A stretch of DNA of 26,184 nucleotides from a bacterium (GTDB lineage: Bacteria; Sysuimicrobiota; Sysuimicrobiia; Sysuimicrobiales; Kaftiobacteriaceae): positions 1-26,184 of the forward strand of contig JBIOWP010000083.1 in the NCBI GenBank assembly GCA_044868695.1, given 5' to 3'. The notes beneath the pieces are model-generated. The model was not told the origin of the DNA and ran no database searches. It was given only the letters and a program-made list of their open reading frames with translations. Both the position numbers and the translations under genes were made by a program. Below are positions 3-20,668 of the stretch, piece after piece; the stretch's first letter is position 1, and the number at the start of each line of letters is the position of its first letter.

Positions 3-1559
3 GCGGAGCTCACGGACGATATCGGTCTGCTGTCCGGCCTGTACGCGGGCTACGGCCTTGGGCAGTGCGTGGGCGACGTCGGACGCGAGCAGGCCCGCCT
101 GTCCCCGCTCTCCCGCGGCCAGGTCGCCGGCGGCGCCGTGCAGATACGCGGCGGCGGCTGCGGCGTCAAACGCCGGCAGGCCCTGGGCGATCATCGCGGC
201 CACCACGCCGGTAAGCACGTCACCCATGCCCCCGCTGGCCATCCCCGGATTTCCGGTACGGATGATGGCCGTCTCGCCGTCCGGCTTGGCGACGATTGTG
301 TGCGCGCTCTTCAGAGCGACAACACAGCGGAACCGCGCCGCGGCCTCGCGCGCGGCGCCCAGCCGGTCTTCAACAATCTTCGGCGCCGGCCGTTTGAGAA
401 GGCGCCCCAGCTCGCCTGGATGCGGGGTGATGATCACCGGGCCCCGCGCCTTGGCCAGACGGTCCGCCCGGCCAGCCAGCACGTTGAGCCCGTCGGCGTC
501 GAGGACGAGCGGTTTGTCGCGCCCGAGCAACTCTTCGACGATGCGAGCCACGCCTGGGAGTGTGGACAGCCCGGGACCGGCGGCGACGACGTCCGCCGTG
601 GCCAGGAGCTCATCGATCCGGCCCATCGCCGAGGGACCGACCGCTCCCCCGTCGTCGGCCAGCGGAGTGGTCATGCCTTCGGTGATCTGCGATGCGACGA
701 TGGGGTAGACGCTCTGCGGAACCGCCGCGGTGACCAACCCCGCCCCGCCACGCAGCGCCCCAAGCGTGGACAGGACGGCGGCCCCGGCGAACCCGACGGA
801 GCCTGCCACGATCAGCACGTGCCCATACGTCCCCTTGTGGGTGTCGGGCCGTCGCGGCGGGAGGAGCGCGCGAACCTTTGCCGCCATCACCAGCCGGGTC
901 GTGATCGACGGGTCGTCGATCAGATCCTGCGGGTAGCCAATCTCCCCCACGATCACCGTCCCGGCCATCTCGGCGCCGGGGAAGAGCATCAGGCCGAGTT
1001 TCGGCAGCCCCATCGTAACGGTGGCCGCGGCGCGGATGCACGGCCCGTCCCAGGTGCCGGTGTCGGCCTGCAGGCCCGACGGGATGTCGACCGCCAGGAT
1101 GGGGCGGCCCGACCGGTTGGCCGCCTCAATCAGGGCTGCGGCGTCACCTGTGACCAGTCCGCGGATCCCGGTCCCGACCAGCGCGTCGATGACGAGATCG
1201 GCCCCGGCCATCACCTCCTCAGCCTTCTCGGACCCCGTCAGTGAGACGCCCGCTTCCCCCGCCGCGACCAGGGCCCGGGCGGCTTCGCCCGAGAACTCCT
1301 GCTTCGGCGCCGAAAGCAGCACGGTGATGTCAACCCCCGCGGCCCGCAGGTACCGGGCGGCCACGAGGCCGTCCCCGCCGTTGTTGCCCTTTCCGACCAG
1401 CACGACGCCGCGGCGGCCCCCGTGTTCATGCAGGAGCGCCTCGGCTGCCTGTGCGACCCGCCGGCCGGCCGCCTCCATGAGCGCGGCGATGGGAATGCCG
1501 TGAGTCTCGGTCGCCCGGCGGTCCAGTTCCTTCATCTGTGCTGCCGTCACCACCCGCAT
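3..1559 (-). CDS. nnr: Bifunctional NAD(P)H-hydrate epimerase/dehydratase (YjeF_N plus carbohydrate kinase domain); 3' end runs off the window
   Basis: Manual translation from the ATG at 1559: MRVVTAAQMKELDRRATETHGIPIAALMEAAG...VLVGKGNNGGDGLVAARYL...DALVGTG...HKGTYGHVLIVAGS...VITPHPGE...GLLASDV. The first and last codons are in the same frame, and no stop is reached by position 3, so the ORF track omits it. AGAAGGA lies upstream. Confidence 0.95.
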   Translation of the reverse strand, partial: MRVVTAAQMKELDRRATETHGIPIAALMEAAGRRVAQAAEALLHEHGGRRGVVLVGKGNNGGDGLVAARYLRAAGVDITVLLSAPKQEFSGEAARALVAAGEAGVSLTGSEKAEEVMAGADLVIDALVGTGIRGLVTGDAAALIEAANRSGRPILAVDIPSGLQADTGTWDGPCIRAAATVTMGLPKLGLMLFPGAEMAGTVIVGEIGYPQDLIDDPSITTRLVMAAKVRALLPPRRPDTHKGTYGHVLIVAGSVGFAGAAVLSTLGALRGGAGLVTAAVPQSVYPIVASQITEGMTTPLADDGGAVGPSAMGRIDELLATADVVAAGPGLSTLPGVARIVEELLGRDKPLVLDADGLNVLAGRADRLAKARGPVIITPHPGELGRLLKRPAPKIVEDRLGAAREAAARFRCVVALKSAHTIVAKPDGETAIIRTGNPGMASGGMGDVLTGVVAAMIAQGLPAFDAAAAAAYLHGAAGDLAAGERGQAGLLASDVAHALPKAVARVQAGQQTDIVRELR

Positions 1560-1637
1560 CTCGGAGGGTCCTTCTCTTGGACAAAGAGGGCTCCTGCCGG
1601 GCAGTTATCCCCAGAGCACACACAGTCCACACCGTGT

Positions 1638-1649
1638 GAACGAAAGTTC
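1638..1649. promoter_or_regulatory. GAAC-N4-GTTC palindrome, candidate Gram-positive-type LexA (SOS) box
   Basis: tGAACgaaaGTTCc lies in the divergent intergenic region, ending 4 bp before the -35 element at 1654. Confidence 0.35.
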
Positions 1650-1653
1650 CCAA

Positions 1654-1682
1654 TTGACCCGCCATACGCGCGGTGATACCTT
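1654..1682 (+). promoter_or_regulatory. Sigma70/SigA-type promoter for the ncRNA
   Basis: TTGACC (1654-1659), a 17-bp spacer, then TACCTT (1677-1682) preceded by an extended -10 TG (1674-1675). The predicted start near 1689-1691 coincides with the 5' end of the RNA's terminal stem. Confidence 0.7.
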
Positions 1683-1689
1683 CACTGCT

Positions 1690-1869
1690 GAGAGAGGCGC
1701 GAGTCTAACGGCAAAGTAGCCGACTCAAACGCCGCTGTACGTGGACTCCGAGAGCCGTGGGAACTTCACTTCGGGAGTAATCCCGGAGAGGGGGCCTGCA
1801 GGCGGTAGGAACCGGCGACGCGGCAGAAGACGGTGAAACGCCGAGAGTCCTGGCGCCTCTCTCGCTTTT
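1690..1869 (+). ncRNA. Putative structured non-coding RNA, family unassigned
   Basis: Perfect 11-bp terminal stem (1690-1700 GAGAGAGGCGC with 1853-1863 GCGCCTCTCTC) followed by TTTT, several nested helices including a GUAA-tetraloop hairpin (1769-1788), an upstream promoter and no listed ORF. Confidence 0.7.
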
Positions 1870-1886: not shown

Positions 1887-2786
1887 CTAGGATCCGGGCC
1901 GCACCTCAACCTTCGCCAGTTCCTCAATGAGGGTGACCAGTGCCGAGTGGTCCCAGTCGCCGCGCTCGAGGCCCCGCAGCGCCGTGAAGGCTTCCTGCAC
2001 GACCGCGGTCGCCGGCAGGGGCACGCCGAGGGTGTTGGCCGTGGACAGGGCGATGTTGAGATCCTTCTGGTGCAGCCGCACGCGGAAGCCCGGCTGGAAG
2101 TTGCGGTCCAGCATGCGCTGGCCGTGCGCCTCCAGGATCCGGCTCTGCGCGAACCCACCCAGCAGCGCCTGACGCACTTTCGCCGGGTCCACCCCGGCTT
2201 TCGCCGCCAGGGCCAGCGCCTCACCGACGGCCTGGATCGTCAGCGCCACCACGATCTGGTTGCACGCCTTGGTCACCTGACCGGCGCCCGTGCCGCCGAT
2301 GTGCACCACGTTCTTTCCCAGCGCCCCGAAGATCGGGCGGACCCGGGTGAACACCGGCTCCGGACCGCCCACCATGATGGACAATGTGGCCTCGATCGCG
2401 CCCTTCTCGCCGCCGCTGACCGGCGCATCGAGGATCTCGGCACCTTTGGCCCTCACGGCCTGCGCGATCTCCTGCGTGGCGATCGGCGAGATCGTGCTCA
2501 TATCCACCAGCACCGAGCCGGGCCGGAGACCCTCCAGCACACCGTCGCGCCCCAAGACCACCTGCTGCACGTCCGGCGTGTCAGGCAGCATCGTGATGAC
2601 CACGTCACTCTGCTGCGCGACGCCCCGCGGCGTCTTCCCATCGAGCGCTCCCGCCGCGACGAGCTCCTCGACCGGCGGCCGGCTGCGGCTGTGGACCGCG
2701 AGCGCATAGCCCGCCCGCATCAGGTTGCGGGCCATGGGCCTCCCCATGATCCCGAGGCCGATCACGCCGATGCGTTCATTGGTCAC
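1887..2786 (-). CDS. glxR: 2-hydroxy-3-oxopropionate (tartronate semialdehyde) reductase, beta-hydroxyacid dehydrogenase family
   Basis: IGLGIMG Rossmann motif, DAPVSGG, GAGQVTKACNQ with the catalytic Lys, and GGFAQSRILEAHGQRM..FQPGFRVRLHQKDL, closely resembling E. coli GlxR. Confidence 0.85.
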   Translation of the reverse strand: MTNERIGVIGLGIMGRPMARNLMRAGYALAVHSRSRPPVEELVAAGALDGKTPRGVAQQSDVVITMLPDTPDVQQVVLGRDGVLEGLRPGSVLVDMSTISPIATQEIAQAVRAKGAEILDAPVSGGEKGAIEATLSIMVGGPEPVFTRVRPIFGALGKNVVHIGGTGAGQVTKACNQIVVALTIQAVGEALALAAKAGVDPAKVRQALLGGFAQSRILEAHGQRMLDRNFQPGFRVRLHQKDLNIALSTANTLGVPLPATAVVQEAFTALRGLERGDWDHSALVTLIEELAKVEVRPGS

Positions 2787-2818: not shown

Positions 2819-3544
2819 TCAGGCTCGGGCCGTCAGCATCGAGCGGGCGAAGACAGGGTCGTCGGCGATCATCCCATCGACTCCCAGGCGCAGCGCATGG
2901 CGCGCCTGGTCTTCCGTGCGCACGGTCCAGGGAATGACCCGCAGCCGGGACGCGCGGCACAGCGTCATGACGTCGGCCGAGAGCGCGCCGATCTCCGGCA
3001 AATAGGCGGCCACACCCAGCCGCACCGCCACCTGCGGGTGCGCCGCAGGCTGCAGCAGCCCCGCCGCAATCTCCGGAGCCAGCGCGCGGGCGTCCGAGAT
3101 GATCTGCAGGTCGAACGAGGTGATGAGCACCGACTCCGCCATCTTCATCTCTCTGACCAGGTCAATCAGGGACCGCACGATTCCCGGGGCCTTGACCTCG
3201 ACGTCCACCAGCAGGCGGCCCCGCGCCGCGTCGAAGACCTCGGACAGCAGCGGCACGCGCTCCCCCACGAATGCCGGGCCGAACTTCCGTCCCGCATCGA
3301 AGCGGTGCACCTGGGCGAGCGTCAGCGCGGCGATCGCCCCTGTCCCGTCGGTGGTCCGGTCCACCAGGTCGTCGTGGATGACGACGAGCTGCCCGTCGGC
3401 GGTGGCGCGCACATCCAGCTCGACGCCGTCGGCGCCGAGGTCTGCCGCCAATCGAAACGCCGCCAGGGTATTCTCCGGCGCGACCGCGGACGCCCCGCGG
3501 TGGGCGATGATCCAGCAGCGGCCGGCGTCAAGCCACCGGTTCAT
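2819..3544 (-). CDS. Glycerophosphodiester phosphodiesterase (UgpQ/GlpQ-like, cytoplasmic)
   Basis: IIAHRGAS..APENTLAAF, GVELDV, VVIHD..VDRTT, VEVK, PWTV. Start reassigned to the ATG at 3544 because the ORF-track extension to 3997 overlaps the upstream gene. Confidence 0.92.
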   Translation of the reverse strand: MNRWLDAGRCWIIAHRGASAVAPENTLAAFRLAADLGADGVELDVRATADGQLVVIHDDLVDRTTDGTGAIAALTLAQVHRFDAGRKFGPAFVGERVPLLSEVFDAARGRLLVDVEVKAPGIVRSLIDLVREMKMAESVLITSFDLQIISDARALAPEIAAGLLQPAAHPQVAVRLGVAAYLPEIGALSADVMTLCRASRLRVIPWTVRTEDQARHALRLGVDGMIADDPVFARSMLTARA

Positions 3545-4445
3545 GAAGGGCGGCCAGCTGCACCGCGGTGTCGGTGGTAATCTGACCGGCACCCGCGGCC
3601 AGCACGGCCGCCAACCTCTCGCGCGTCTGCGGCAGCCCGGAGTTGAGCGTCCAGGCGTCGACCGGCACGCCGAGCCGGCGCCGGACGATCTCGACGGGGT
3701 TGACCCCGTCGGCGATCGCACGGAGGATGAATTCCGCACGCAGGTACACTTCAACGGCACCCGGCAGCAGGTGACACAGACTCTCCACCCGGTCCTCCAG
3801 GTAGTCGCGCACCGGCATGGCCCGCAGGTACCCGAGCGGGTGATCGTCGAGATATCCGTAGACGTTGACCCGCAGCGGCAGCCGGGGGAATTCGCTGTCC
3901 GGCGCGTCGAGGTACAGCGCAAAGTCCAGGCCGACGGCCAGCGTAGTATCGAGCCGCCGCAGGATGCGCAGGTTCCAATCGCCCAGGCAGCCGACAACTA
4001 CGGTGAGGCGGGGATTCGCGCGCATGGGCTCGATCGCGCGCAGGAGGCGGCCGGCCTCCTCCGCACCGAGCGGGTCCTGATCTTTCAAATCCACCTGAAC
4101 CTTCACCGGAGCGCGGTGGGAACCCAGGACCTGCGCGACCTCCGAGAGCAGCGCGGCGGGCTCGGCCGATCCCCGCAGGCGCAGCGCCTTCACCGACGCC
4201 CGGGTCGCGCTCCGCACCGGACCGATCCCGGTCGTCTCACGGTTAAACGTGTCATCGTGGTTCAGGACGTAGTCACCGTCTGAAATCGCATGAACGTCGA
4301 ACTCGATGACCTCCGCCCCGCCGGCCAGCACCTCGTGCAGCGCGGAGAGGCTGTTGGGAGGATGGGCACCCGTTCCGGAGAGCAGCCGGTGGTATTTCAG
4401 CAGCACGCGCCGCCCGCCGGCGGCCAGACTGGCGGGGAGCGTCAC
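3528..4445 (-). CDS. Divergent glycerophosphodiester phosphodiesterase family protein
   Basis: LKYHR...PPNSLSAL, IEFDV, LNHD..FNRETTG, QVDLK, DAWT, ITTD: GDPD motifs with substitutions. Confidence 0.85.
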   Translation of the reverse strand: MTLPASLAAGGRRVLLKYHRLLSGTGAHPPNSLSALHEVLAGGAEVIEFDVHAISDGDYVLNHDDTFNRETTGIGPVRSATRASVKALRLRGSAEPAALLSEVAQVLGSHRAPVKVQVDLKDQDPLGAEEAGRLLRAIEPMRANPRLTVVVGCLGDWNLRILRRLDTTLAVGLDFALYLDAPDSEFPRLPLRVNVYGYLDDHPLGYLRAMPVRDYLEDRVESLCHLLPGAVEVYLRAEFILRAIADGVNPVEIVRRRLGVPVDAWTLNSGLPQTRERLAAVLAAGAGQITTDTAVQLAALHEPVA

Positions 4446-5491
4446 GATGCGCGTCCTTCGAGCCTGCGTCCGTCCGCGCCGAAGCAGTGCAGCCTGCCGG
4501 GATCGTAGCCGATGCCGATCTGGGTTCCCACCGCGGGACGGATGTCTGCGACCATCTTCACTGTGGTTCCGTCCAGGTCCATGGTCACCAGCACCTGGCG
4601 GCCGAGCGTTTCCACAAGGATCACGCGACCGCGGATCGCCGTCCCGGGGGCCAAGTCCTCCGGCCGCAGTCCGATGGTGCCGGGACCGGGGGAGACCGAT
4701 GCTGGAAGAGAGAGCCGCAGTCCGCCTCCCGCAAAGGTGCCGTCCTGGAACGTGCCGGGGATCAGGTTCATCGGCGGGTGTCCGACGAATCCGGCGACGA
4801 AGGTGTTCGCGGGCCTGGCGTAGAGGTCGTCGGGCGTGGCGAACTGCTGCAACGCGCCCGTCGAAAACACCGCCACCCGGTCCGCCATCGCCAGCGCCTC
4901 CGCCTGATCGTGCGTGACCAGAATGCTCGTCACGCCGAGGTCCTGCTGCAGCCGGCGGATCTCCCCCCGCGCCTGCAGCCGGATCTGGGCATCGAGATTG
5001 GACAGCGGCTCGTCGAGCAGCAGCACCTGGGGTTCCTTCACCAGGGCGCGGGCCAGCGCCGCGCGCTGCTGCTGCCCGCCGCTCACTTCGGCCGGACGGC
5101 GCTCAAGGATACGGCCGATGCCCAGCAGCTCGGCGGTCTGCGCCACTTTGCCCGCAATCTCCGCCCCGCCCTGCCGCTTGAGCCGGAGCGGAAAGGCGAT
5201 GTTCTCGAACAGCGTGAGGTGCGGGTACAGGGCGTAGGACTGGAACACCATGCCCACGTCGCGGTCGCGCGGGTGCAGCTGATCCACCCGCCGATCGGCG
5301 AAGTGGATCGTGCCGGCGGTCGGCTGGTAGATGCCGGCGATCATCAGCAGCGTGGTCGTCTTGCCGCAGCCCGACGGACCGAGAAACGCCACCATCTCCC
5401 CTGCCCGGATGTCCAGATCGAGCGCCCGCAGCGCGACCACCTTGCCGAAGGACTTGCTCAATCCCTCCAGGCGGATGGCGATGCCTTTCAT
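4442..5491 (-). CDS. CUT1 sugar ABC transporter ATP-binding protein (InoK/MalK-like)
   Basis: GPSGCGKTT Walker A, VSGGQQQR signature, LLLDEPLSNLD Walker B. The start ATG at 5491 overlaps the permease stop (ATGA). Confidence 0.95.
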   Translation of the reverse strand: MKGIAIRLEGLSKSFGKVVALRALDLDIRAGEMVAFLGPSGCGKTTTLLMIAGIYQPTAGTIHFADRRVDQLHPRDRDVGMVFQSYALYPHLTLFENIAFPLRLKRQGGAEIAGKVAQTAELLGIGRILERRPAEVSGGQQQRAALARALVKEPQVLLLDEPLSNLDAQIRLQARGEIRRLQQDLGVTSILVTHDQAEALAMADRVAVFSTGALQQFATPDDLYARPANTFVAGFVGHPPMNLIPGTFQDGTFAGGGLRLSLPASVSPGPGTIGLRPEDLAPGTAIRGRVILVETLGRQVLVTMDLDGTTVKMVADIRPAVGTQIGIGYDPGRLHCFGADGRRLEGRAS

Positions 5492-6312
5492 CCCTTCACC
5501 CCGCCTCCGTAAATGTTCAGCAGGTAGCGCTGCCCGAACAGGAAGATCATCAGCACAGGCAGGGCGTAGACCACGCCAACGGCGGCGACCATCCCGAAGT
5601 CGGCGTATCCTTCCGTGAGAAACGTCTGCAGATAGTTCGACATCAGCGTCTTTTGGTTGCTGACAATCAGGGTGAACGGCAGGATGAACTCGCCCCACGC
5701 GGACAGCAGCGCGAAGGTGCTCAGGGCCAGCAGTCCGGGACGCACCAGCGGCATGGCGACCTTCCAGAACAGCTTCCACCGCGACATGCCGTCGACCAGC
5801 GCCGCCATCTCCATATCCCAGGACAGGGTGTCAAAGAATCCCTTCATCAACCAGATCCCGAGCGGCAGCTCGAGCGAGGCCTTGACGAGAATGACCCCGG
5901 TCAGGGTATCGAACAGTCCGAGCAGCCGCAGGATATAGAAGATGGCAATGATCAGGCTCACCGCCGGGAACGCGTGCAGCACGAGGACGAGGCCGAGATA
6001 GAAGCGCCGCCCCGGGAAGGACATCCGCGAGATGGCATACGCGGCCATGGAGGCGACCACGACCTCGATGGCCGTCACCACGCCTGCAAAGATCAGGGAG
6101 TTGACCAGGGGGACGTGCACGAGCGGCCTGCCCCCCACGCCCTCCCAGAGGAAGCGCCAGTTGTCGATGGAGGGCGCGCGCACCGGGACCAGTCCGTGCA
6201 CGCGGTCAAAGACGCCGGTTAGAAAGAGCCACAGGACCCCCGCGGCGATCGGCACCGTGACGACCAGCAGCACGGCGAGGATGAGGCGCCAGCGCGGAGG
6301 GAGCAGCGGCAT
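5488..6312 (-). CDS. Carbohydrate ABC permease (InoG/MalG-like)
   Basis: Multiple hydrophobic helices and the EAA-like loop EMAALVDG. Confidence 0.93.
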   Translation of the reverse strand: MPLLPPRWRLILAVLLVVTVPIAAGVLWLFLTGVFDRVHGLVPVRAPSIDNWRFLWEGVGGRPLVHVPLVNSLIFAGVVTAIEVVVASMAAYAISRMSFPGRRFYLGLVLVLHAFPAVSLIIAIFYILRLLGLFDTLTGVILVKASLELPLGIWLMKGFFDTLSWDMEMAALVDGMSRWKLFWKVAMPLVRPGLLALSTFALLSAWGEFILPFTLIVSNQKTLMSNYLQTFLTEGYADFGMVAAVGVVYALPVLMIFLFGQRYLLNIYGGGVKG

Positions 6313-7259
6313 CAGTTGACCTCGACCTTGGGCTCCGCCACGAGCGCCCGGAAGTTGAAGATCCGGAGATACAGGAGCGAGACGGCGATGCCGATTACGA
6401 CCAGCACGGCCGCCATCGCCGCCCCCAAGCCGAACTGCACGTTACCGAAGTAGTTGGACAGCGCCAGCTTGTACGCGTGCAGCGCCCAGACCGTGGTGGT
6501 GTAGAATCCGGGCCCGCCGTCGGTGAGGAGCAGGATGTACTCGAACGACGTCAGCAGCGACAGCGTCTGGTACGCGGTGACGAACAGGAGCGGCCAGCGA
6601 AGCATAGGCAGCACCACCCGCCGGACCGTCTGCAGCGCGGTCGCGCCGTCCACCGCGGCCGCGTAGAACAGGTCGCGGGGAATCGCGCGGATCGCCGAGG
6701 TAAAGATCAGCATCCCGAACGACGCGCCGACGAGGCCGTTGGCCAGGACGATGACCGGCCACGGCGACGCGGTGATCCAGTTCCTCGAGACCCCGAGGAC
6801 GTTGCTGACCAGCCCGAAGGGCGTCTCCCGCGAGAGTCCCTGCCAGATGAAGACATAGACCACCGCGGGCAGGATGCGCGGCAGCAGCCACAAGGCGCGG
6901 ATCTGGCCCCCGGCGCGCTCGCGCACCGATGTGCTGAGCAATGCGACCAGCAGGCCCATCCCCACGTTGAACAGCAGCGTGAAGACGACGTAGCGCGCGG
7001 TGTTCACCAGGATCTTGCCGATGAACGGGTCGCCCAGCAGTTCCCGATAATTCCCCAGCCCCACCCACTTCGGCTGGCGGAAGGTCAGAGTGGAGATGTC
7101 GGTAAGCGACAGTCCCAGCGTCGTGACGACGGGTACAAGGAAGAAGAGCACGATGAGCACCGTCGCTGGCGCCAGGAAGACCGCCGGCATCAGGTAGCGC
7201 AGCGCCGGACGCGCCGCCCGGACCCTCGAGACTCCCGCGACCCCAGCCTCCTGCGCCAT
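6312..7259 (-). CDS. Carbohydrate ABC permease (InoF/MalF-like)
   Basis: WVGLGNY, the YAAAVDGA loop and multiple transmembrane segments. Confidence 0.93.
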   Translation of the reverse strand: MAQEAGVAGVSRVRAARPALRYLMPAVFLAPATVLIVLFFLVPVVTTLGLSLTDISTLTFRQPKWVGLGNYRELLGDPFIGKILVNTARYVVFTLLFNVGMGLLVALLSTSVRERAGGQIRALWLLPRILPAVVYVFIWQGLSRETPFGLVSNVLGVSRNWITASPWPVIVLANGLVGASFGMLIFTSAIRAIPRDLFYAAAVDGATALQTVRRVVLPMLRWPLLFVTAYQTLSLLTSFEYILLLTDGGPGFYTTTVWALHAYKLALSNYFGNVQFGLGAAMAAVLVVIGIAVSLLYLRIFNFRALVAEPKVEVN

Positions 7260-7279
7260 GCCTGCGCTTCCCCCCCGCG

Positions 7280-7348
7280 TAGGGGATAGGGGGATGGGAC
7301 TGGGGGAGGAACCAGTCCCCAGTCCCTAGTCCCCAGTCCCTAGTTCCT
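7280..7348. repeat. Heptamer tandem repeats (AGTCCCY)x5 with a degenerate inverted G-rich arm, forming an intergenic hairpin
   Basis: AGTCCCC AGTCCCT AGTCCCC AGTCCCT AGTTCCT at 7314-7348. GGGACTGGGG at 7296-7305 is the reverse complement of CCCCAGTCCC. Confidence 0.85.
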
Positions 7349-7350
7349 CG

Positions 7351-8700
7351 TCATTCAACGATGATCTGATCTCTGATGGTGCGCTGCATCTCGCTCGCTA
7401 CCAGATCGACGCCCTGCTGCGGCGTGACCTGGCCCGACTCGACCGCCGAGAGGCCGCGGTACACGGCATCCTGCCACTTGGAGAGATCGGGATGGGCCGG
7501 CGCGAACGTCGTGTAGTTGAGGAGGTAGCTCACTTCCTTCAGGAACTTGTTGTTGACCACGCGCGCCGTCGTGCGGAGCACGGGTAGGTGCGCGCTGCCC
7601 ACGGCGTGCTTGGCGTCGAGATCCGGCACCGTCGTAAACGCCAGCAGCCGGACGGCGAGATCTTTGTTCTTCGATCCCGCGGCGACGAAGTAGCCCTGCG
7701 GGTTGGACAGGGTGATGGGCTTGCCGCCCTTCGCATACGCCGGGTGCGGCCCGTAGCCGAAGTTCGCGAACAGCCACTCCTCCCCGCCCTTGCTGTTCAC
7801 CCACAGCTGCGCCCACTCCGCCCACTGCCATGTCCCGCCGGAGAAGAACAGGACCTTCCCGTCGGTGACCGGCTGCATGAAGCGGTTCCAGTCGTTGTTC
7901 AGGCGGTCTTTCTCGATGACGCCCGCCTCCACGCCCGTCCGCAGCCAGCTGTAATAGCGTAGGAGCGCCGCCCTGTTAATGACCAGCTTGCCGCTGGCCG
8001 CGTCGAAGTCGCGACCGCCGAAGGAGCGGTACCACTGAATGAAGTCGGGGCCGTTCACCGGGCGGTGGTAATATCCTTTGCCGGCCTCGATGACGCGTTT
8101 CTGGACCGCCTCGCGCGAGGTGGCCATCACGTCATCCCACGTGAAGTCCCCCTTCGCCATCCGGTCGGGCAGCGCGGCGATCTGCGCGTCCGACCACCCC
8201 AGTTGCCGGAGGAGCGTCTTGTTGAAGTAGAGCGGCCGCGCCTCCGTGTCCTGCGGGATGGCCCAGACCTGGCCCTTGTAGCGCATCGAGTCCCACAGCG
8301 AGGGCACCACATCGGCGAACTGCGGATAGCGGGGGAGATACGCGTCGAGCGCCGTCACGAACCCGGCGTCCGCCCAGGTCGCGGCGAGCGAGCCGTTGGC
8401 CTGGACGATGTCCGGGCCTTCCCCGCTCTGGAAGCCGAGCAGGACCCGGCGCAGATACGCGTCCCAGTTCGTGGTGTCGAAGAATCCTTCCACCTTGATC
8501 TGGACGCCGGCGCCCTCGCGCTGCAGCGCAGCGTTCAGGCGTTCCGCGGCGGCCTGCAGATTGTTGAATCGCGTGACCGACGGGTTGTCCGGCCCGATCG
8601 TCCACGCCTTGAGCACCACAACGCGCTGTGCGGAGGCCGGCGGGAGCACGAGCGCCACCAGCGCGACCATCCACACAGCGATCACCCATCGATGTTTCAT
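7351..8700 (-). CDS. ABC substrate-binding protein, InoE-like (inositol-phosphate binding family)
   Basis: Sec-type signal peptide (...PPASA). The motifs AWTIGPDNPS..RF.NL..A.ERLN, IPQDTEARP, GGTWQWAEW and AKHAVGSAHL match my recollection of Thermotoga maritima InoE (TM0418). Confidence 0.85.
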   Translation of the reverse strand: MKHRWVIAVWMVALVALVLPPASAQRVVVLKAWTIGPDNPSVTRFNNLQAAAERLNAALQREGAGVQIKVEGFFDTTNWDAYLRRVLLGFQSGEGPDIVQANGSLAATWADAGFVTALDAYLPRYPQFADVVPSLWDSMRYKGQVWAIPQDTEARPLYFNKTLLRQLGWSDAQIAALPDRMAKGDFTWDDVMATSREAVQKRVIEAGKGYYHRPVNGPDFIQWYRSFGGRDFDAASGKLVINRAALLRYYSWLRTGVEAGVIEKDRLNNDWNRFMQPVTDGKVLFFSGGTWQWAEWAQLWVNSKGGEEWLFANFGYGPHPAYAKGGKPITLSNPQGYFVAAGSKNKDLAVRLLAFTTVPDLDAKHAVGSAHLPVLRTTARVVNNKFLKEVSYLLNYTTFAPAHPDLSKWQDAVYRGLSAVESGQVTPQQGVDLVASEMQRTIRDQIIVE

Positions 8701-8729
8701 CCCTCACCCCCTGAATCGTCTGATCCCAC

Positions 8730-10118
8730 TCACTCCTTGCCGATCACGACCTCGTCGATCCCGGACGAGGCCAGTTCGTACTTCCCTTGAATCCCCCGGC
8801 CGCGCCTCCGCCGCGGACGGAACGTCCGGCCGAACATCCCGGCGAGCCGCCGGGCCTCCTCGGGCGCACGGTCGATGAGGTTCGCACGCTCGTCTGGATC
8901 GTTCCCCAGATGATAGAGTTCGTCGGGCTCGCCCGCAGGCCGCTCGACGTAACTCCACGTCTGCGTCCGGATGCAGCGGTCGATACCCTCGTAGTAGCCC
9001 ATGATGACGGCATCCCGGTGCTCGGAGGTCTGCCCCTCCACCACCGGGGCGAAGCTGCGGCCGTGCATGGCGCCGGCATCCCCCCGCACTCCCAGGAGAT
9101 CGAGCAGCGTCGGCAGCATGTCCTGGAACTGGACGAGCGCATCCGTCCGCGTCCCCCCGCGCCGTCCCTGCGGAAGCCGGATCATACAGGGCACACGGAG
9201 GAGTTCGCTGTGCAGGCGGTCGGCGCCCTTGAGGAACTTCCCGTGGTCCGAGAGCGGGTGCCCGTGGTCGGCGAGGAGGAGCACGACGGAATCGTCTAGG
9301 TAGTTCAAGCGGGCCAGTCCCTCGAACAGCCGGCCGAGGCAGGCATCGACGAAGCTGACCTCCCCCGCGTACAGCCCCCGGATGTGGCGCGTCTCGGCGG
9401 GCGACGCCCACGTGCGGCTGAGGCCACCCATGGGCAGGATAAGCCGGGGCCCGCGGTACGCGGGATCGGCATACGTGTCGAACCGCGCGGGTGGATCCCA
9501 GGGTTCGTGCGGATCGAAGCAGTCGATCCAGAGGAAGACCTTCTTGTGGCTCCGGTTGCGCTGCAGCCAGGTGACGGCCTCGTCCACGACGCGCGCGGGA
9601 AACCAGTCGTCCTCCGAGGTGAACGCGTCGGTGTTGGCCAGGAACTGCGCGACGCGCTCCCGCCATTCCGGCGTGTAGTGTTCGTTCACGTAGGCGCCGA
9701 CGTCGCGGCGGGGCGGTCCGGACTCCCAGGGATCATACTCCTGGCCGCGGATCCACCGATAGGCGTGGAACCCCGCGTGATAGTTCATGCCGGGGGCCCG
9801 GTAATGGTAGCAGTCCGAGACCAGCCCGCCGACGTAGCCTTCGCCGCGGAGGATCTGGGCGATCGTGAGGTCGCCGGACCCGAGCGGCGCCCAGGGGCGG
9901 AACGGGAGCGCGCGCTGGCCGGTCATCAGCACGTAGCGGGCGGGGATCGTCGGCAGCGCCTCCGGATAGGCGTTGGAAAACACGACGCACTCCCGGCTAA
10001 AGGCGTCGAGATTCGGCGTGCGGGCCGGCGGGACATCGCTGAACCGCGCGCGCCCCTGGTGATACGCGCCGACCTGGTCCTGGCGCAGGCTGTCGAGCAC
10101 CACCACGATGAGGTTCAC
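8730..10118 (-). CDS. Sulfatase-fold (alkaline phosphatase superfamily) hydrolase with a TxPxR motif
   Basis: VVLDSLRQD, NAYPEALPTIPARYVLMTG, DPHEPWD, ADHG, ELYHL..DPDERANL; no signal peptide. Confidence 0.88.
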   Translation of the reverse strand: MNLIVVVLDSLRQDQVGAYHQGRARFSDVPPARTPNLDAFSRECVVFSNAYPEALPTIPARYVLMTGQRALPFRPWAPLGSGDLTIAQILRGEGYVGGLVSDCYHYRAPGMNYHAGFHAYRWIRGQEYDPWESGPPRRDVGAYVNEHYTPEWRERVAQFLANTDAFTSEDDWFPARVVDEAVTWLQRNRSHKKVFLWIDCFDPHEPWDPPARFDTYADPAYRGPRLILPMGGLSRTWASPAETRHIRGLYAGEVSFVDACLGRLFEGLARLNYLDDSVVLLLADHGHPLSDHGKFLKGADRLHSELLRVPCMIRLPQGRRGGTRTDALVQFQDMLPTLLDLLGVRGDAGAMHGRSFAPVVEGQTSEHRDAVIMGYYEGIDRCIRTQTWSYVERPAGEPDELYHLGNDPDERANLIDRAPEEARRLAGMFGRTFRPRRRRGRGIQGKYELASSGIDEVVIGKE

Positions 10119-10121
10119 CCG

Positions 10122-11579
10122 TCAGCGCTCCCACCGTTCGACGACGACTTTCTTCTCGGTATAGAATTCGACGGCGTCGCGGCCCTGCCCGTGGAGGTCT
10201 CCGAAGAAACTGTCCTTGTACCCGCAGAAGGGGAAGAACGCCATCGGCGCCGCCACCCCCACGTTGATCCCGAGGTTGCCGACCTGGGCCTCGTACCGGA
10301 ACTTCCGCGCGACCGCCCCGCTCCGGGTAAACAGGCAGGCCATGTTGCCGTAGCGCTGCTGGTTCATCAGCGCGATCGCTTCGTCCACGTCGCGAACATG
10401 GATGAGGCTCAGCACCGGGCCGAAAATCTCCGTCTGGGCGATCTTGCCCGCGGGCGGGAGATTCTCCAGCACGGTCGGCTTGACGAAGAACCCGCGCTCG
10501 TAGCCCGGAATGCGGGCGCGCCGGCCGTCCACCACCGCGGTGGCGCCCTCGTCGATCCCGTCCTGGATGAGCGCTTCGACGCGCGCCTTGCTTTCGGAGC
10601 GGATGACCGGACCTACCTCGACGCCCTCGTCCAGCCCGAATCCGACTCGCCGTGACGCCGCCGCATCCGCCAGCGCGCGCGTCGCGGTGCGCGCGGTGTC
10701 GGACACCAGCAGCGCCAGCGACGACGCCAGGCAGCGCTGGCCGGCGCAGCCAAACGCGGATTCGGCGACGGCCCGCGTGGTAGCCTCGAGATCGGCGTCG
10801 GGCATGATGATGATCGGATTCTTCGCGCCGCCCTGGCACTGGGCGCGCTTGCCGTTGGCGGTGGCGCGCGTATACACGTACCTGGCGACGGGAGACGATC
10901 CCACGAAGGAGATCGCACGGATCGCGGGGTGGTCCAGGATCGCGTCGACCGTTTCCTTCGCGCCGTTCACCAGATTCACCACGCCTGCGGGCAGGCCGGT
11001 CTGCTCGATCAGGCGCATGATCTTCTGCATCGTGAGGGGCACTTTTTCCGATGGTTTGATGATCACGGTGTTGCCGCATGCGACCGCATACGGCAGGAAC
11101 CACAGCGGGATCATCCCGGGGAAGTTGAAGGGCGTGATGGCGGCCACGACCCCCACCGGCTGGCGGACCAGCAGCTCATCGATGCCGCGCGCGATATCTT
11201 CGCTGTGATACCCCTGCAGGAGGATGGGGATGCCGCAGGCCACCTCGACGTTCTCGATCCCCCGGCGCACTTCGCCCACGGCTTCAGCGAGCGTCTTGCC
11301 GCATTCGGTCGTGACGGTCCGCCCGAGCTCATCCAGGTGCGCGTCCAGCAGGACTTTCAGCTTGAACAGGTATTGCACGCGCTCCACCGGCGGCGTGCGC
11401 CGCCACTGGGGAAGCGCCCCGGCTGCGGCCTCGGCGGCCGCGTGCACGTCGGCGGCCGGCGACAGCGGCACCGCGGCAATCGTCTCGCCGGTAGCGGGAT
11501 TGTACACGTCGGCGGCGGCCCCCGCAGACGCCCGCCACTGGCCGCCGATGAAGTTGAGCACCTGCCCGTTTCCGCTCAT
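10122..11579 (-). CDS. iolA: CoA-acylating (methyl)malonate-semialdehyde dehydrogenase
   Basis: [38 protein letters not shown]. Start set at the ATG at 11579 behind a GGAGGG ribosome-binding site. Confidence 0.93.
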
Positions 11580-11596
11580 GGTCGATCCCTCCATCA

Positions 11597-13459
11597 TCAC
11601 AGGGGCATCCGCTCGCGCCGCACGGCCCGCTCGTAGTCGGCCCGCGCCCGGCGCACGGTCTCCATCTCGGAGACTTCGGCGACCGGCACGTCCCACCATG
11701 ACTCGTAGCCGGGGACGCGCTCCTCAGGGTCGACCTCGACGACGATCACCGTGGTGGTGGGCTGCCGCCGGCTCTCCAGTAGCGCCCGCGCCAGATCCTC
11801 CCGCGTGACCGCGCGCAGCGCGTGCGCGCCCAAGCTCCCGGCGTTGGCGACAAAGTCGATAGGGAGAATGGGCCCGTCCAGCTGACCGGTCTGGGGGTTG
11901 CGCGAGCGGTACGCGGTCCCGAATCCACCGGACCCCACCGCGTTCGAGAGGCCGCCGATGCTGCTGAACCCGTGGCTGTCGAACACGACGATGGTGAGTT
12001 TCACCTGTTCCTGGATCGCGGTCACGATCTCGGAGGACATCATCAAATAGGACCCGTCGCCGACCAGCACATAGACGTCCCGCTCCGGGGCCGCCATCCT
12101 GGCACCGAGACCGCCGGCGATTTCATAGCCCATGCATGAGTACCCGTACTCCAGGTGATAGGTTCCCGGCGTCCGCGCGCGCCAGAGCTTGTGGAGGTCT
12201 CCGGGCAAGCTGCCGGCGGCACACACCACCACATCCTGCGGCCGCACCGCGTCGTTGATGACGCCGATCGCCTCGGCCTGGCTGATCGGGGGGCCGTGCC
12301 GGCGGGAGGTGAGCCGTTCCACCTCCGCCTCCCATTGATCCCGCAGACCGGCGATGCGGTGGGCATACGCGTCGGCGATCCGGTAGCCGGCGAGCGCGGG
12401 GGCGAGCTCCTCGAGCGTGGCGCGGGCATCGGCGACGAGCGGGAGCGCCGCGTATTTGTACGCGTCCTGCTCGGCCACGTTGACAGCGAGAAAGCGAACC
12501 TGCGGGTGTTGGAACGTGGTCGCCGACGCCGTCGCAAAATCCCCCAGCCGAGTGCCGATGGCAATGACGAGATCGGCCTCTCTGGCGACCACGTTGGCGC
12601 CGATGGTCCCGGTCACGCCGAGCGCGCCCAGGTTCTGTGGGTGGTCGTGGGGGAGGGAGCCCTTGCCTGCCTGCGTCTCCACCACCGGGATGCCCGTCTG
12701 CGCGGCCAGCAGCGTCAGCGCATCCGTGGCCTCACTGTAGATCACTCCCCCACCGGCAACGATGACCGGATGCGCGGCGGAGGTGATCCACTGCAGGGCC
12801 TGCCTGAGCAGGGCGCGGTCGGCCAGGGGCCGGCTGATATGCCAGACGCGCTTGGCAAACAGCTTCGCGGGATAATCCCACGCTTCGGCCTGGACGTCCT
12901 GGGGCAGCGCCAGGGTCACGGCGCCCGTCGCGGCCGGCGAGGTGAGCACGCGCATCGTCTGCAGCAGCGCCGCCGGCAGCTGGTCGGCTCGATTGATCCT
13001 GTCCCAATAGCGGGAGACCGGTCTAAAGCAGTCGTTGACCGAGGCGTCCTGCGACGAATCCAGTTCCAACTGCTGCAACACCGGCGCGACGTTCCGCCGC
13101 GCGAAGATGTCGCCGGGCAGCAGCAGCACCGGCAGGCGGTTGATGGTGGCGCCCGCGGCAGCGGTGACCATGTTGGTTGCGCCTGGGCCGATGGACGAGG
13201 TGCAGGCGAACGCGCGCAGCCGCCGGGACATCTTGGCGAAGCCCGCCGCGGCGTGGACCATCGCCTGCTCGTTGCGGGCCTGATAGTAGCGGAACTGAGG
13301 ATACTGCTGCAGCGCCTGCCCGATCCCGGCCACGTTCCCGTGGCCGAAGATCCCCCACATGCCCGCAAAGAACGCCTGCTCGCGGCCGTCGCGCTCCACG
13401 TACTGCTGTGTCAGGAACGCTACCAGTGCCTGCGCCATCGTCAACCGCCGCGTGTCCAT
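11597..13459 (-). CDS. iolD: 3D-(3,5/4)-trihydroxycyclohexane-1,2-dione acylhydrolase
   Basis: [43 protein letters not shown], the GDGSY TPP motif and [10 protein letters not shown]. Confidence 0.97.
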
Positions 13460-13472
13460 GACTCCCTCCCCA

Positions 13473-14432
13473 TCACAAGCCCCCCCGCGACTCGATGAAG
13501 TCCAAGGCCTCGCGTTCGTAGGGCATAAAGTTGGCGCAGCCGTGCCGGGTCACCACGATCGCCCCGCAGGCGTTCCCCATCCGGCCCGCGTCGTGCCAGT
13601 CCCACCCTTTCAGGTAGCCGTACGCGAAGCCGCTGGCAAACGCGTCGCCCGCGCCGAGCACGTTGACGACTTCTACCGGAAACGGATTGATGCGGATGAC
13701 CTCGCCCCCCGGGAGGTGCACCGACGCGCCGCGCCCGCCGTGTTTGACCACGAGGGCGCGCGGCCCGGCATCGAGCAGCGGCCCGACGGCCTCGGCGACC
13801 GACGAGACCCCCGCGGCCTCGGTGACCTCTTCTTCGGTCCCGATGGCCACGTCCACCATCCGCAGCGCCCCCCGGACCATCACACCGAACCCCCGCGCGT
13901 CATGCCACAGCGCCGGCCGCAGGTCCAGATCCAGAAACACCGGGATCCGATGGGTCCGGGCCTGTTCGGCGGCAAACAGCGTCGCGCTCCGGCTGGGCTC
14001 CCGGCTGAGGCCCGTCCCGGTGATCACCAGCAGCCGCGTCTGCCGCACCGGCGCGGCCACGACGTCGTCGATCGTCAGCTCGATGTCGGCGCAGTTGTCA
14101 CGGTAGAACACCAGCGGGAACCGGTCCGGCGGCTCGATGCCCAGCAGCACGGCGCTGGTGCGGCGGCCCGGCTTGCGCGGGATGAACCGCGTCTCCACGC
14201 CTTCGGTCGACAGGAACTTCATGACGAAGTCCCCCACGGGATCGTCGCCGACGGCCGTCAGCAGCGCGCTGCGCAGCCCCAGCCGCCGGGCCCCCACGCT
14301 GATATTGGTGGGACACCCGCCCACATAGGCGGCAAAACTCTTGATGTCCGCGAACGGGACACCGATGTCGTTGGCATACAGGTCGATGGAACTGCGGCCC
14401 ATCGCCAGAATGTCGTACTGGGGCCCCGGCAT
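13473..14432 (-). CDS. iolC: 5-dehydro-2-deoxygluconokinase (PfkB family)
   Basis: GRSSIDLY, YVGGCPTNI, FPLVFYRDNCAD, GAGDAF. Start at the ATG at 14432 with a GGAG ribosome-binding site. Confidence 0.95.
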   Translation of the reverse strand: MPGPQYDILAMGRSSIDLYANDIGVPFADIKSFAAYVGGCPTNISVGARRLGLRSALLTAVGDDPVGDFVMKFLSTEGVETRFIPRKPGRRTSAVLLGIEPPDRFPLVFYRDNCADIELTIDDVVAAPVRQTRLLVITGTGLSREPSRSATLFAAEQARTHRIPVFLDLDLRPALWHDARGFGVMVRGALRMVDVAIGTEEEVTEAAGVSSVAEAVGPLLDAGPRALVVKHGGRGASVHLPGGEVIRINPFPVEVVNVLGAGDAFASGFAYGYLKGWDWHDAGRMGNACGAIVVTRHGCANFMPYEREALDFIESRGGL

Positions 14433-14437
14433 CGCGG

Positions 14438-15328
14438 TCACTCCATTGCGTGACTCACCACTGGAACACGGGAATCCTTCGACGTCCACGTCTGTTTGAC
14501 CCACGCGTGGTCGGGATCGTCCGTGTTGGCCAGCGACTGCGCGGACCCGGCGAGGACGTTGAGGTAGTAGCAGCCGTAGCCGTACGCGACGGTGACGGGG
14601 TGGTAGCCTTCGGGGACCAGCACGATGTCGTTGTGCTGCGCGACCATCACTTCGTCCAGGCGGCGATCGCCCGTGTAGACGCGCTGCACCGCAAACCCGT
14701 GCGGGCGGTCGAACTGATAAAAGTAGATCTCTTCCAGGTCGGCCTCGACGACCCGGCCTGCCCCATCGACGCGATGGACATCGTGCTTGTGGGGCGGATA
14801 GCTGCTCCAGTTGCCCCCAGGCGTGTAGACCTCCACGCACACGAGCCGGTGGCAGGCAAACCCGGGCGGGATGATGCTGTTGATCTGGCGAGTGGCGCCC
14901 CCGCCGCCGCGGATCTCGATCTGTGAGTCCGCCGGCGTGACGAGCACGGGCGCGTGATCCCGGTCGGTGGGGACCCAGCAGTACGCAAGGTCGACGGCAG
15001 CCGTCAGGGCGGTCAGCGTGAATTCGGTGCGGCGCGGCAGGTAGAGCGCATACGGCATCCCGGCAAAGACGCTGGGCCGGCGGCCGAACCCCGGCCAGCG
15101 GCCTCTGCTCGACTCCACCTGGCAGCGCCCGCCCAGCAGCACGATCGCGGCCTCATGCTCACCCGTCGCTGCCGTCCAGCGCTGGCCCTCCGTGACGCGG
15201 CGGACTTCGAAATTCACGAAGTCCCACCCGGCCTGTTGCGCAGTGACGCGCGTGGTGACTCCCGATGCCGCGGTGACCACGGCAGGCTTGACTAACAGGC
15301 GTGAGCGCCCAGTATCCACCATGCTCAT
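14438..15328 (-). CDS. iolB: 5-deoxy-glucuronate isomerase
   Basis: EVYTPGGNWSSYPPHKHD, LEEIY, VPEGYHP, YYLNVLAG. The start could instead be 15322. Confidence 0.96.
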   Translation of the reverse strand: MSMVDTGRSRLLVKPAVVTAASGVTTRVTAQQAGWDFVNFEVRRVTEGQRWTAATGEHEAAIVLLGGRCQVESSRGRWPGFGRRPSVFAGMPYALYLPRRTEFTLTALTAAVDLAYCWVPTDRDHAPVLVTPADSQIEIRGGGGATRQINSIIPPGFACHRLVCVEVYTPGGNWSSYPPHKHDVHRVDGAGRVVEADLEEIYFYQFDRPHGFAVQRVYTGDRRLDEVMVAQHNDIVLVPEGYHPVTVAYGYGCYYLNVLAGSAQSLANTDDPDHAWVKQTWTSKDSRVPVVSHAME

Positions 15329-15400
15329 GCTGCGTATCTTGTTCGCGTTGTTCGCCGTTCGCCCTGTCCGTTGATTCGGATGAGGAAAGTGGGAAAGAAG

Positions 15401-15417
15401 GAGGGGACTGTCCCCTC
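15401..15417. promoter_or_regulatory. Perfect 17-bp palindrome GAGGGGAC-T-GTCCCCTC (operator or REP-like element)
   Basis: 8-bp arms around a 1-bp centre, in the divergent iolB/dehydrogenase intergenic region. Confidence 0.45.
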
Positions 15418-15447
15418 ATTTCAATAGCTCAGCTGGGTCATTCTGGG

Positions 15448-15465
15448 ATAGCCCAAGCGGGCTAT
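15448..15465. promoter_or_regulatory. Inverted repeat ATAGCCC-N4-GGGCTAT, candidate operator
   Basis: 7-bp arms in the divergent promoter region. Confidence 0.35.
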
Positions 15466-15530
15466 GTCTGGGGGTGCGCATCCGGGCAGGGATTGCGCGT
15501 ACGGGCCGAGAACCATAGCAATGCCCACGC

Positions 15531-16559
15531 ATGGCCACCGATACGATGACCGCCGCCGTCTTTGCACGGCCCGGCGAGCTTGCGCTAAAGGAAGTGCCGG
15601 TTCCCCGCGTCCGCCACGACGACGATGTCCTCCTCCGGGTGCGGGGCATTGGGATTTGCGGCACCGATGTACATATCCTCAGCGTGCCTCCCGGCCACCC
15701 CGCGAAAGAAGGCGTGATCCTCGGACACGAATACACCGGCGAGGTCGTCTCGATCGGTACCGCGGTCGGGCACGTGCGGGTCGGCGACCGGGTCGTGGTC
15801 GATCCGACGCCGCCGTGCGGGACCTGCGCGTACTGCCGGCTCGACCAGCCCAACATGTGCGAGAACAATCTGTCCATCGGCGTCTTCACCGACGGCGGGA
15901 TGGCCGCCTACAGCCTGGTTCCCGCGCGCGGCGTGTTCCCGATCTCGCCCGCCGTCCCCGAGCACATCGTGGTGCTGGCGGAGCCGCTGGCCGATGTGCT
16001 GAACGGCATCCGGCGGGCCTCCCCTCAGCTCGGCGAAACGGTGCTGGTCCTCGGCGCCGGACCGATCGGCCTCCTGTTCACGCTGCTGCTGCGCGCCGCC
16101 GGCGCGGGGACGATCCTGGTGTCCGAGCCGGCGCCGTTTCGCGCGAAGCGGGCCGCGGACTGCGGGGCCGACCAGGTGATCGATCCCACCCGGGACGACC
16201 TGGCCGGCGCCGTGCGGCGGGCGGCGCCGCTGGGGGTCGACCTCGTCATCGATGCCGTCGGCGGGCTGCTGGAAGCCGCCGTGGCGACCGTGAGAAAAGG
16301 CGGCCGGATCCTGCTGTTCGGCGTGAACACGACGGCACAGGTCACCCTGCGCCAAGCGGACCTGACGTTCCGTGAACTCACGATCCTCGGCAGTTACATC
16401 GACCGGGCGACCTTTCCGCAGGCCATCAAGATTCTGGAATCGGGCCGGGTGCCGTTCGATCGCCTGGTCACGCACCGCCTGCCGCTCGGGCGGGTGCGGG
16501 ACGGCATCGAATTGTTGCGCCGCGGTGAGGGAATCAAAGTCGTTGTCATGCCAGACTAG
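15531..16559 (+). CDS. Zn-dependent medium-chain polyol/inosose dehydrogenase
   Basis: GICGTD, GHE, structural zinc site CxxCxxC..C and GAGPIG. The substrate is inferred from context only. Confidence 0.9.
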   Translation: MATDTMTAAVFARPGELALKEVPVPRVRHDDDVLLRVRGIGICGTDVHILSVPPGHPAKEGVILGHEYTGEVVSIGTAVGHVRVGDRVVVDPTPPCGTCAYCRLDQPNMCENNLSIGVFTDGGMAAYSLVPARGVFPISPAVPEHIVVLAEPLADVLNGIRRASPQLGETVLVLGAGPIGLLFTLLLRAAGAGTILVSEPAPFRAKRAADCGADQVIDPTRDDLAGAVRRAAPLGVDLVIDAVGGLLEAAVATVRKGGRILLFGVNTTAQVTLRQADLTFRELTILGSYIDRATFPQAIKILESGRVPFDRLVTHRLPLGRVRDGIELLRRGEGIKVVVMPD

Positions 16560-16580
16560 ACGATCACAGGGGGTGAGGCT

Positions 16581-18019: not shown

Positions 18020-18922
18020 GTGATGACGGCACACTGGGGCGCAACCGCCGCCCGCTGGACGGATCGTCATTTCCCGCTGCTGGCGGTTGCGCCCGCGGTC
18101 GTCATCCTGTTCCTGACCACCATCTTTCCCCTGCTGTACGCCTTGTACAACAGCCTGTTCGACTTCTATCTTCCCCAGCCCGGTCTCCGCCGCTTCATCG
18201 GGGCCGGCAACTACCTCGCGGCACTGACCGATCCGGTCTTCCTCGGATCGCTGCGGCGCACCGGGCTCCTCATCGCCGGCGGCATCGCGCTGCAGTTCCT
18301 CGTCGGTCTAGTCATTGCGCTCGTGCTCAGCGACGAGGAGGTGCGCGGCCGAAAGATCCTCACCTCGGTGATCGCCATTCCCATGATGATCCCTGAGGTG
18401 GCGGCCGCCTACATGTGGTGGCTGCTCTTTCGCGTGCAGGGCTTCCTGAACTACGCGCTGGGCTGGCTCGACCTGGGCCCGTTCTTATGGATCTCCGGCC
18501 CGTCGACCGCGCTGCCGTCCATCATCCTCACCGACTCCTGGCAGTGGATCCCGTTCGTGGCCCTCGTGCTGGTGGCCGGAATGGCCTCGATCCCCACCGA
18601 GATCCACGAGGCCGCCGCGCTGGACGGCGCGGGGTGGTTCGCGCACCTCACGCGCGTCACCCTGCCGCTGCTCCGCCGCGTCATGCTCGTCATCCTGCTG
18701 ATCCGCAGCATGGACATCTTTAAGATGTTCGGACTGATCCTCGTGATGACCCAGGGCGGCCCCGGCGACGTGACGACGACCGCCACGTTCTACACCTATC
18801 TCAACGGCTTCGCCTACTTCAAGGTCGGCTACGGCGCGGCGCAGTCGTTCATCCTGCTGGCGATCATCGTCGTCCTGTCCACCCTGCTGATCAGCCACGT
18901 CTACGAGGAGCGGGCGGCGTGA
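18020..18922 (+). CDS. Carbohydrate ABC permease (MalF-like)
   Basis: FIGAGNY, EAAALDGA loop, MTQGGPG. The start is 18020 (GTG) or 18023 (ATG). Confidence 0.93.
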   Translation: MMTAHWGATAARWTDRHFPLLAVAPAVVILFLTTIFPLLYALYNSLFDFYLPQPGLRRFIGAGNYLAALTDPVFLGSLRRTGLLIAGGIALQFLVGLVIALVLSDEEVRGRKILTSVIAIPMMIPEVAAAYMWWLLFRVQGFLNYALGWLDLGPFLWISGPSTALPSIILTDSWQWIPFVALVLVAGMASIPTEIHEAAALDGAGWFAHLTRVTLPLLRRVMLVILLIRSMDIFKMFGLILVMTQGGPGDVTTTATFYTYLNGFAYFKVGYGAAQSFILLAIIVVLSTLLISHVYEERAA

Positions 18923-19734: not shown

Positions 19735-19754
19735 GCGGCGCAGGAGGACCAGGC

Positions 19755-20657: not shown

Positions 20658-20668
20658 GATCTGCCTCC

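Follow-up and report, generated by a model that had tools for sequence, protein, structure and literature searches.

Does the short interval between nnr and a reductase-type gene in a member of the Sysuimicrobiota encode a free-standing RNA and, if so, what kind of RNA is it? The interval belongs to a 26,184-nt stretch of DNA (the window) from a phylum of uncultured soil and hot-spring bacteria, for which PMC11604079 reports a relative abundance of up to 22.64% in soils. We found no description of such an RNA in the literature on CSP1-3/Sysuimicrobiota, and non-coding terms gave no match in the main text of PMC11604079 and PMC11962464. The original prediction, made from the letters of the sequence, had placed here a compact multi-helix RNA with its own promoter, possibly of a new class.

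Results

Our analyses support a free-standing, promoter-driven, structured RNA on the + strand. The gene spans 1690..1863 and encodes an unbranched rod of about 175 nt. A covariance model scores this interval at 185 bits on the + strand and 28 bits on the - strand, and its folding z-score against shuffled sequence is -4.73 on the + strand and -2.30 on the - strand. Alignment of 28 full-length copies, which leaves out three partial or poorly aligned matches, gave a single unbranched rod in which 97.5% of cells are paired, compared with 39-57% in slid-alignment controls, and 22 of 45 pairs show compensatory changes. Among 62 distinct metagenomic copies, derived from 67 of 80 scored loci, the paired share of cells is 97.1%, with compensatory changes at 20 of 49 pairs; that alignment was model-fitted and pattern-selected, and the invariance of its core is partly by construction. 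Covarying homologues, for which the original prediction had proposed a search, do exist. Genome G033 contributes one row to each of the alignments (28 and 55 rows), and together with G062 it accounts for two of the 94 genomes in the tallies below; no claim is based on these two genomes alone. An ATG-initiated reading frame of at least 15 codons is present in only 12 of 55 sequences, and no frame is conserved.

The rod is closed by stem P1, where 1690..1700 pairs with 1853-1863; in the eight pairs assessed, 100% of cells are paired and three pairs are compensatory. The core (1709..1726), 99% paired, consists of helix P2 (1709-1712/1840-1843), an AAAGUA/GAAAC internal loop and helix P3 (1719-1722/1831-1834), followed by a 2-nt bulge and the pairs 1725-1726/1829-1830. 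The segment 1727..1749 carries an AAAC/NGAA 4 x 4 loop and the helices 1731-1744/1812-1824 and 1747-1749/1808-1810, with nine of 13 pairs compensatory. A second 4 x 4 loop, the bulged-G-like GANA/RGUA (1750-1753/1804-1807), occupies the segment 1750..1767 together with helices 1754-1767/1790-1803, and its motif recurs in 26/28 and 46/62 sequences. The tip is an 8-bp hairpin (1769..1788) with a GUAA tetraloop at 1777-1780, which is present in all main copies (28/28 and 62/62) and in 24 of 55 sequences once divergent paralogues join. All of these elements lie on the + strand. We take the AAAGUA/GAAAC and GANA/RGUA loops to resemble the loop-E or bulged-G motif. Unpaired bases are also conserved, A1727-1729 at 82-89% and A1827-1828 at 93-95% (n=56), and the biggest conserved internal loops measure 6/5 and 4/4 nt (a variable one, 8/9).

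In place of the compact multi-helix architecture first proposed, the homologues support this unbranched rod. Two of the proposed elements, the 11-bp P1 and the GUAA hairpin at 1769-1788, were confirmed and belong to the rod. The helices that had been named P2, P3 and P4 and a hairpin at 1795-1809 are indeed complementary in the window copy, but they are not conserved: 66, 46, 62 and 69% of cells are paired in 28 homologues and 49, 37, 65 and 65% in 55, with pair probabilities of 0.00-0.04. The calculated energies are -81.5 kcal/mol for the rod and -66.4 kcal/mol for the fold first proposed. Rod helices P2 and P3 are near-palindromic, and a minor cruciform made of two small hairpins, GGC/GCC and CGGU/GCCG, competes with them (probability 0.26, vs 0.74 for the rod). 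At 1709:1843, 38 of the 62 metagenomic sequences have C-G and 20 have U-A, a change that favours the rod over the cruciform. Pair 1755:1802 likewise is C-G in 28 and U-A in 23 of 55 sequences.

The sigma70-type promoter (1654..1682, + strand) had been described correctly, and it is conserved among homologues. It comprises a -35 box TTGACC (1654-1659), a 17-nt spacer, an extended -10 TG (1674-1675) and a -10 box TACCTT (1677-1682), from which the RNA would start at 1687-1690. Of the upstream regions compared, 27 of 28 from genomes and 58 of 61 from metagenomes preserve the arrangement TTG-16/18-TA, and the extended -10 is also conserved. A consensus promoter scan missed the window promoter, which fell below its threshold, and a consensus scan of the window returned no standard terminator. 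The original prediction had UUUU after P1; the stem stands, and the U-tract lies two bases further on, at 1866..1869 (+ strand), where the transcript would end. Most copies have a U-rich tail (24/28 from genomes, 58/61 from metagenomes).

Further upstream lie elements that, like the paralogues and the second RNA family described below, the first reading had missed. A DnaA-box-like 9-mer, TTATCCCCA, is present at 1605..1613 (+ strand), with a second, weaker one at 1623-1631. Upstream 9-mers were scored at up to one mismatch to TTATCCACA, which we take to be the DnaA box consensus; such boxes occur in 22 of 28 genomic and 46 of 61 metagenomic upstream regions, with about 0.4% expected per 130 nt, and they also flank dnaA in the source genome. 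Adjoining the -35 box is a LexA-box-like GAAC-N4-GTTC element (1638..1649, + strand), and GAAC-N4-(G/T)TT is present in 25 of 28 genomic and 47 of 61 metagenomic upstream regions and in none of 45 tRNA promoters. Its core is that of the CGAAC-N4-GTTYG-type sites at lexA and recA of the source genome, but the outer bases are unlike them; the element thus resembles those sites and does not equal them, and LexA control of the RNA is putative. Two LexA paralogues (G000:C54:3223-3414 and C72:47391-47576) each have an operator-like site upstream, and LexA-like sites are also seen at recA and at ruvC-like, radical-SAM-like and imuA-like genes, named from their translations. A position weight matrix trained on relatives' promoters ranked the window site first in the genome, and two sites on contigs C77 and C12 second and fourth, among sites passing a pre-filter; the third-ranked match is at a contig end (G000:C15:54127, + strand). 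Many divergent copies use another element, AATAC-N11-GAT, with each AATAC position kept in 21-23 of 25 rows, and four further such sites occur in the loci of those copies.

The flanking genes both lie on the minus strand. The gene nnr (YjeF_N plus NAD(P)H-hydrate dehydratase; 3..1559) is the divergent neighbour, outside the RNA, and is found beside 21 of 80 copies examined; a gene of the 3-hydroxyisobutyrate/tartronate-semialdehyde reductase type (1887..2786) converges on the RNA and is beside 12 of 80. The main copy is divergent to nnr in families f1 and f5, and in f3 it sits between a DUF1844 and a DUF255 gene. In f5 the RNA is antisense within a glmS-acpS-nnr gene run, and in the four f4/f2 genomes examined acpS abuts nnr with no RNA between them. 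Genes downstream of the main copy vary between genomes and are often convergent. A riboswitch or cis-acting leader was rejected, as originally predicted from the converging gene at 1887-2786, because the neighbours are convergent or changing and no same-strand gene is consistently found downstream. Extra copies adjoin Usp, CBS-BON, Hsp20, Lon and cold-shock genes; a stress-type neighbour is beside 21 of 35 copies without a DnaA box vs three of 44 with one, counts that are not independent among related genomes and that use a gene list picked after Pfam names were seen. The rest of the window is ordinary: sugar or glycerophosphodiester ABC transporters and GDPD genes at 3528-16964 (- strand), and an inositol-catabolism-like run (aldehyde dehydrogenase, TPP enzyme, PfkB, KduI/IolB, Gfo/Idh/MocA) at 18020-26170.

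A DNA search found homologues in 29 of 41 genomes. Two covariance models place the RNA in 74 of the 94 genomes examined from the phylum and in 43 of 54 near-complete ones: f1 16/21, f5 32/34, f3 23/23, f6 1/1 and f7 1/1, with none in f4 (0/12) or f2 (0/1). Family f3 holds up to eight sense copies, some in tandem and some less than 50% identical to the window copy. Two tandem pairs have a promoter for each member (L022:1187-1673 and L055:1501-2014), and a degenerate copy (L103:2528-2711, G009:C40) scores 24-25 bits and has GCGCAA repeats at its 5' end. A naturally minimal form is seen in three paralogues of about 153 nt (L094, L096 and L097, G040), which retain the core, the apical hairpin and the promoter but not the middle helices. 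When 185,579 species genomes were scanned with a pattern, 49 loci came up, with titles that include ANGP1, RBG_19FT_COMBO_69_19 and Ca. Fervidifonticultor, all of which we take to be CSP1-3/Sysuimicrobiota. Of 15 pattern loci scored with the model, eight reach 151-179 bits.

Several apparent matches elsewhere were rejected. Seven pattern matches came from genomes whose titles name other phyla, and the model did not score at any of these sites; a 33-bit Planctomycetaceae match lies in what reads as coding sequence. Model searches outside the phylum covered 151 genomes of one other phylum, that of an actinomycete, with Armatimonadota, Chloroflexota, Bacillota and Eremiobacterota outside their scope; their three matches of 24-31 bits (including L204) align poorly and are treated as chance. 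A phage collection gave no full-length match, just a 28-nt match in two records, and plasmid and viral-contig collections gave none. The runs found have shares of only 0.05-0.11, and we therefore claim no habitat.

The promoter sites on C77 and C12 each start a rod RNA of 90-120 nt that belongs to a second family (G000:C77:2933-3054, - strand, equal to L111:2434-2555; and G000:C12:7797-7882, + strand). The C77 copy has no Rfam match and no score with the first covariance model. In 24 aligned main copies of this family, GGGAG(U)GAGGUA and ACCCGGCCUAACU are invariant, with an SD-like word contained. The second RNA occurs in 66 of 94 genomes (f1 21/21, f5 32/34, f4 11/12, f7 1/1, f3 0/23) and in none of 151 genomes of another phylum. 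The two families are complementary, in that f3 has only the 175-nt RNA and f4 only the second one; at least one is present in 92 of 94 genomes, and both are absent only from G088 and G022. They share the promoter element, a DnaA-like box plus GAAC-N4-GTT, and a local YGGA/ACC(C)GGC motif (27/28 and 24/24 copies). The shared motif is short, and the two may or may not be homologous. At one locus (L085:2855-3163, G050:C32) a copy of each stands side by side, convergent and about 55 nt apart.

The original prediction had also looked to a transcript. In one of three RNA runs (X1) the copies of relatives reach very high abundance; the two others show no enrichment. In X1, three bins over the RNA reach depths of 3,622, 12,684 and 7,293 and every other bin stays at or below 17, where depth is that of relatives' contigs on the window, blind to strand and ends and measured against nearby bins, not 6S, with flanks that are perhaps too divergent to align. 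The depth is confined to bins 1693-1875. Runs X2 and X4 have depths of 5-12 over the RNA vs up to 16 and 27 nearby.

Discussion

The RNA has no credible match among Rfam families, in agreement with the original prediction. Rfam gave no match in the whole window at the gathering score, just three eukaryotic chance matches on the minus strand in 1600-1950 at E values up to 10, and none in 19 homologous loci. This is a real RNA family absent from Rfam, with a mechanism possibly of a known kind. Its newness is set against Rfam only, and an earlier nameless entry in supplements or non-Rfam catalogues (e.g. PMC11109978, PMC10690425) is possible.

The prediction had also seen no hallmarks of 6S, SRP, RNase P or tmRNA, and each of these was found elsewhere in the source genome: 6S at C84:62978-63159, SRP on C146, tmRNA on C130 and an RNase P signature on C156, with none in the window. 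Across the phylum, 67 of 94 genomes have an Rfam 6S. The 12 f4 genomes and the f2 genome have no Rfam 6S at E <= 0.01, even at 94-100% completeness, reflecting loss or strong divergence. Our RNA is similar to 6S RNA (RF00013) in its length of about 180 nt, its rod of short helices and internal loops, closing stem, sigma70 promoter and abundance, and it matches the size and rod shape of 6S as described in PMC8876501. However, 1600-1950 has no RF00013 match to E = 10, and there is no sequence likeness to the 6S RNAs of the phylum. The RNA coexists with a canonical 6S, and it has up to eight copies. The large central bubble is also absent, with loops of 6/5 and 4/4 nt in contrast to a 20-nt strand in the genome's 6S; forcing such a bubble on the RNA gives -74.4 vs -89.2 kcal/mol. 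The RNA may work like 6S, but it is not a member of the 6S family.

Lineage-specific polymerase-binding RNAs unrelated to 6S are described in PMC11077062, which proposes one abundant RNA of this type per species. As portrayed there, Ms1 and CoRP are similarly lineage-restricted, intergenic, abundant and missed by 6S searches. They differ in length (about 300 and 516 nt vs 175 nt here), and our RNA has no Rfam match; the comparison with CoRP draws on its description.

Other stand-alone RNAs offer partial parallels. The raiA motif RNA is stand-alone and structured, with about 200 nt, a long closing stem and an unclear function. Our RNA shares its free-standing structure and closing stem, but it is unbranched, its neighbours are without raiA or comFC, and a search with RF03072 gave five weak matches of at most 11.9 bits, none at the RNA locus. 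Bacterial Y RNAs have ends joined in a long stem, a U-tail, several copies and an SOS-like promoter. All four features recur here, but a tRNA-like domain does not, and a Ro60 (TROVE) gene was found in 0 of 94 genomes (control rings were found in 2 of 14). A CsrB/RsmZ-type sponge was rejected, with CsrA in 0 of 5 genomes and a single apical GUAA loop in place of repeated GGA hairpin loops.

Our preferred reading is a free-standing gene whose RNA is abundant and stable and acts in trans through protein binding, to which we give a probability of about 0.75. We infer protein binding because conserved unpaired bases are displayed on an abundant rod, whose short helices, broken by conserved internal loops, would form the binding surface. 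RNA polymerase is the likeliest single partner because of size, shape and precedent; by analogy with 6S, Ms1 and CoRP, we tentatively suggest, at less than even confidence, that the RNA is a polymerase decoy. It would imitate duplex DNA and retain polymerase during stalls of growth or replication. The level of the main copy would be under the control of DnaA and a LexA-like factor, and the extra copies would be expressed from stress promoters. A short transcript made on the 5' strand at 1712-1730 could let the 3' strand refold and release polymerase. When 1712-1730 is held unpaired in a folding model, the 3' strand forms a 5-bp hairpin at 1831-1843, which can be likened to the release hairpin of E. 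coli-type 6S as presented in PMC8876501. In 20 of 62 sequences base 1843 is A; the hairpin is then shorter, a point against this step. The missing bubble, the resident canonical 6S and the lack of enrichment in X2 and X4 also count against polymerase.

A serious rival, although one that we doubt on balance, is a decoy or scaffold for another protein (DnaA, a LexA paralogue, a nucleoid protein or a lineage-specific RNA-binding protein) in a stress ribonucleoprotein, a role comparable with raiA-motif or OLE RNAs. Two loop-E-like motifs and the fixed GUAA would suit tertiary folding or protein contact. The second family, with the same promoter element and local motif, is at 90-120 nt too short for a 6S-like job, and the two families complement each other in f3 and f4. 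Against this, no partner gene was found travelling with the RNA among its neighbours, Ro60 and CsrA genes were lacking in the genomes searched, and the raiA model is unmatched.

An RNA associated with ribosomes or dormancy is improbable. Its high abundance in one run and the extra copies beside stress-type genes would fit, and loop-E motifs are common in rRNA, but there is no ribosomal-gene link among 67 neighbour representatives. We consider it quite improbable that the RNA binds a ligand or is catalytic, switching between rod and cruciform. The near-palindromic P2 and P3 permit both folds and the core is almost invariant; however, the compensatory changes speak for the rod, Rfam has no matching riboswitch or ribozyme family (1600-1950 to E = 10 and the 19 homologous loci), and there is no gene to control.

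A selfish or viroid-like circular rod RNA is very improbable. Pospiviroid-like circular RNAs are also rods with loop-E-like motifs, copies number up to eight with tandem pairs, and two contigs end in a 30-nt repeat (X2 record 11 and X5 record 27), taken as a sign of circles in the method of 10.1101/2022.07.19.500677. These repeats may be artefacts and hint at circles only weakly: each contig has a different junction, and run X5 is probably DNA. Furthermore, this is a chromosomal gene with a conserved promoter and no match to an Rfam ribozyme family, the position of the main copy beside nnr is the same in two families, the 67 neighbour representatives include no transposase, reverse transcriptase or integrase, and phages, plasmids and viral contigs gave no full-length match. 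Least probable of all is a base-pairing small RNA, or one antisense to reductase-nnr read-through, which the antisense position in f5 would suit but which the many paralogues with other neighbours and the lack of an exposed seed (no long single strand for antisense pairing; best genomic matches of 14-20 nt) argue against.

Conclusion

Few abundant, stand-alone structured RNA classes are known in bacteria, and each has revealed new biology. Most of a phylum retains the RNA described here, one family has multiplied it, and a second uncatalogued RNA accompanies it under the same element. At 175 nt it is short enough for synthesis in vitro, which opens the question to testing without culture. If polymerase binding is true, the RNA would be another class beside 6S, Ms1 and CoRP, coexisting with 6S. 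A broader reading, which we regard as unlikely, is that the 175-nt family, the 90-120-nt family and their paralogues form a Sysuimicrobiota regulon of abundant rod RNAs under one promoter element with DnaA boxes. Any of these RNAs would stand in for another as a decoy of one central protein (polymerase or the replication initiator), and they would couple transcription or replication to the state of the DNA and to dormancy, alongside the canonical 6S.
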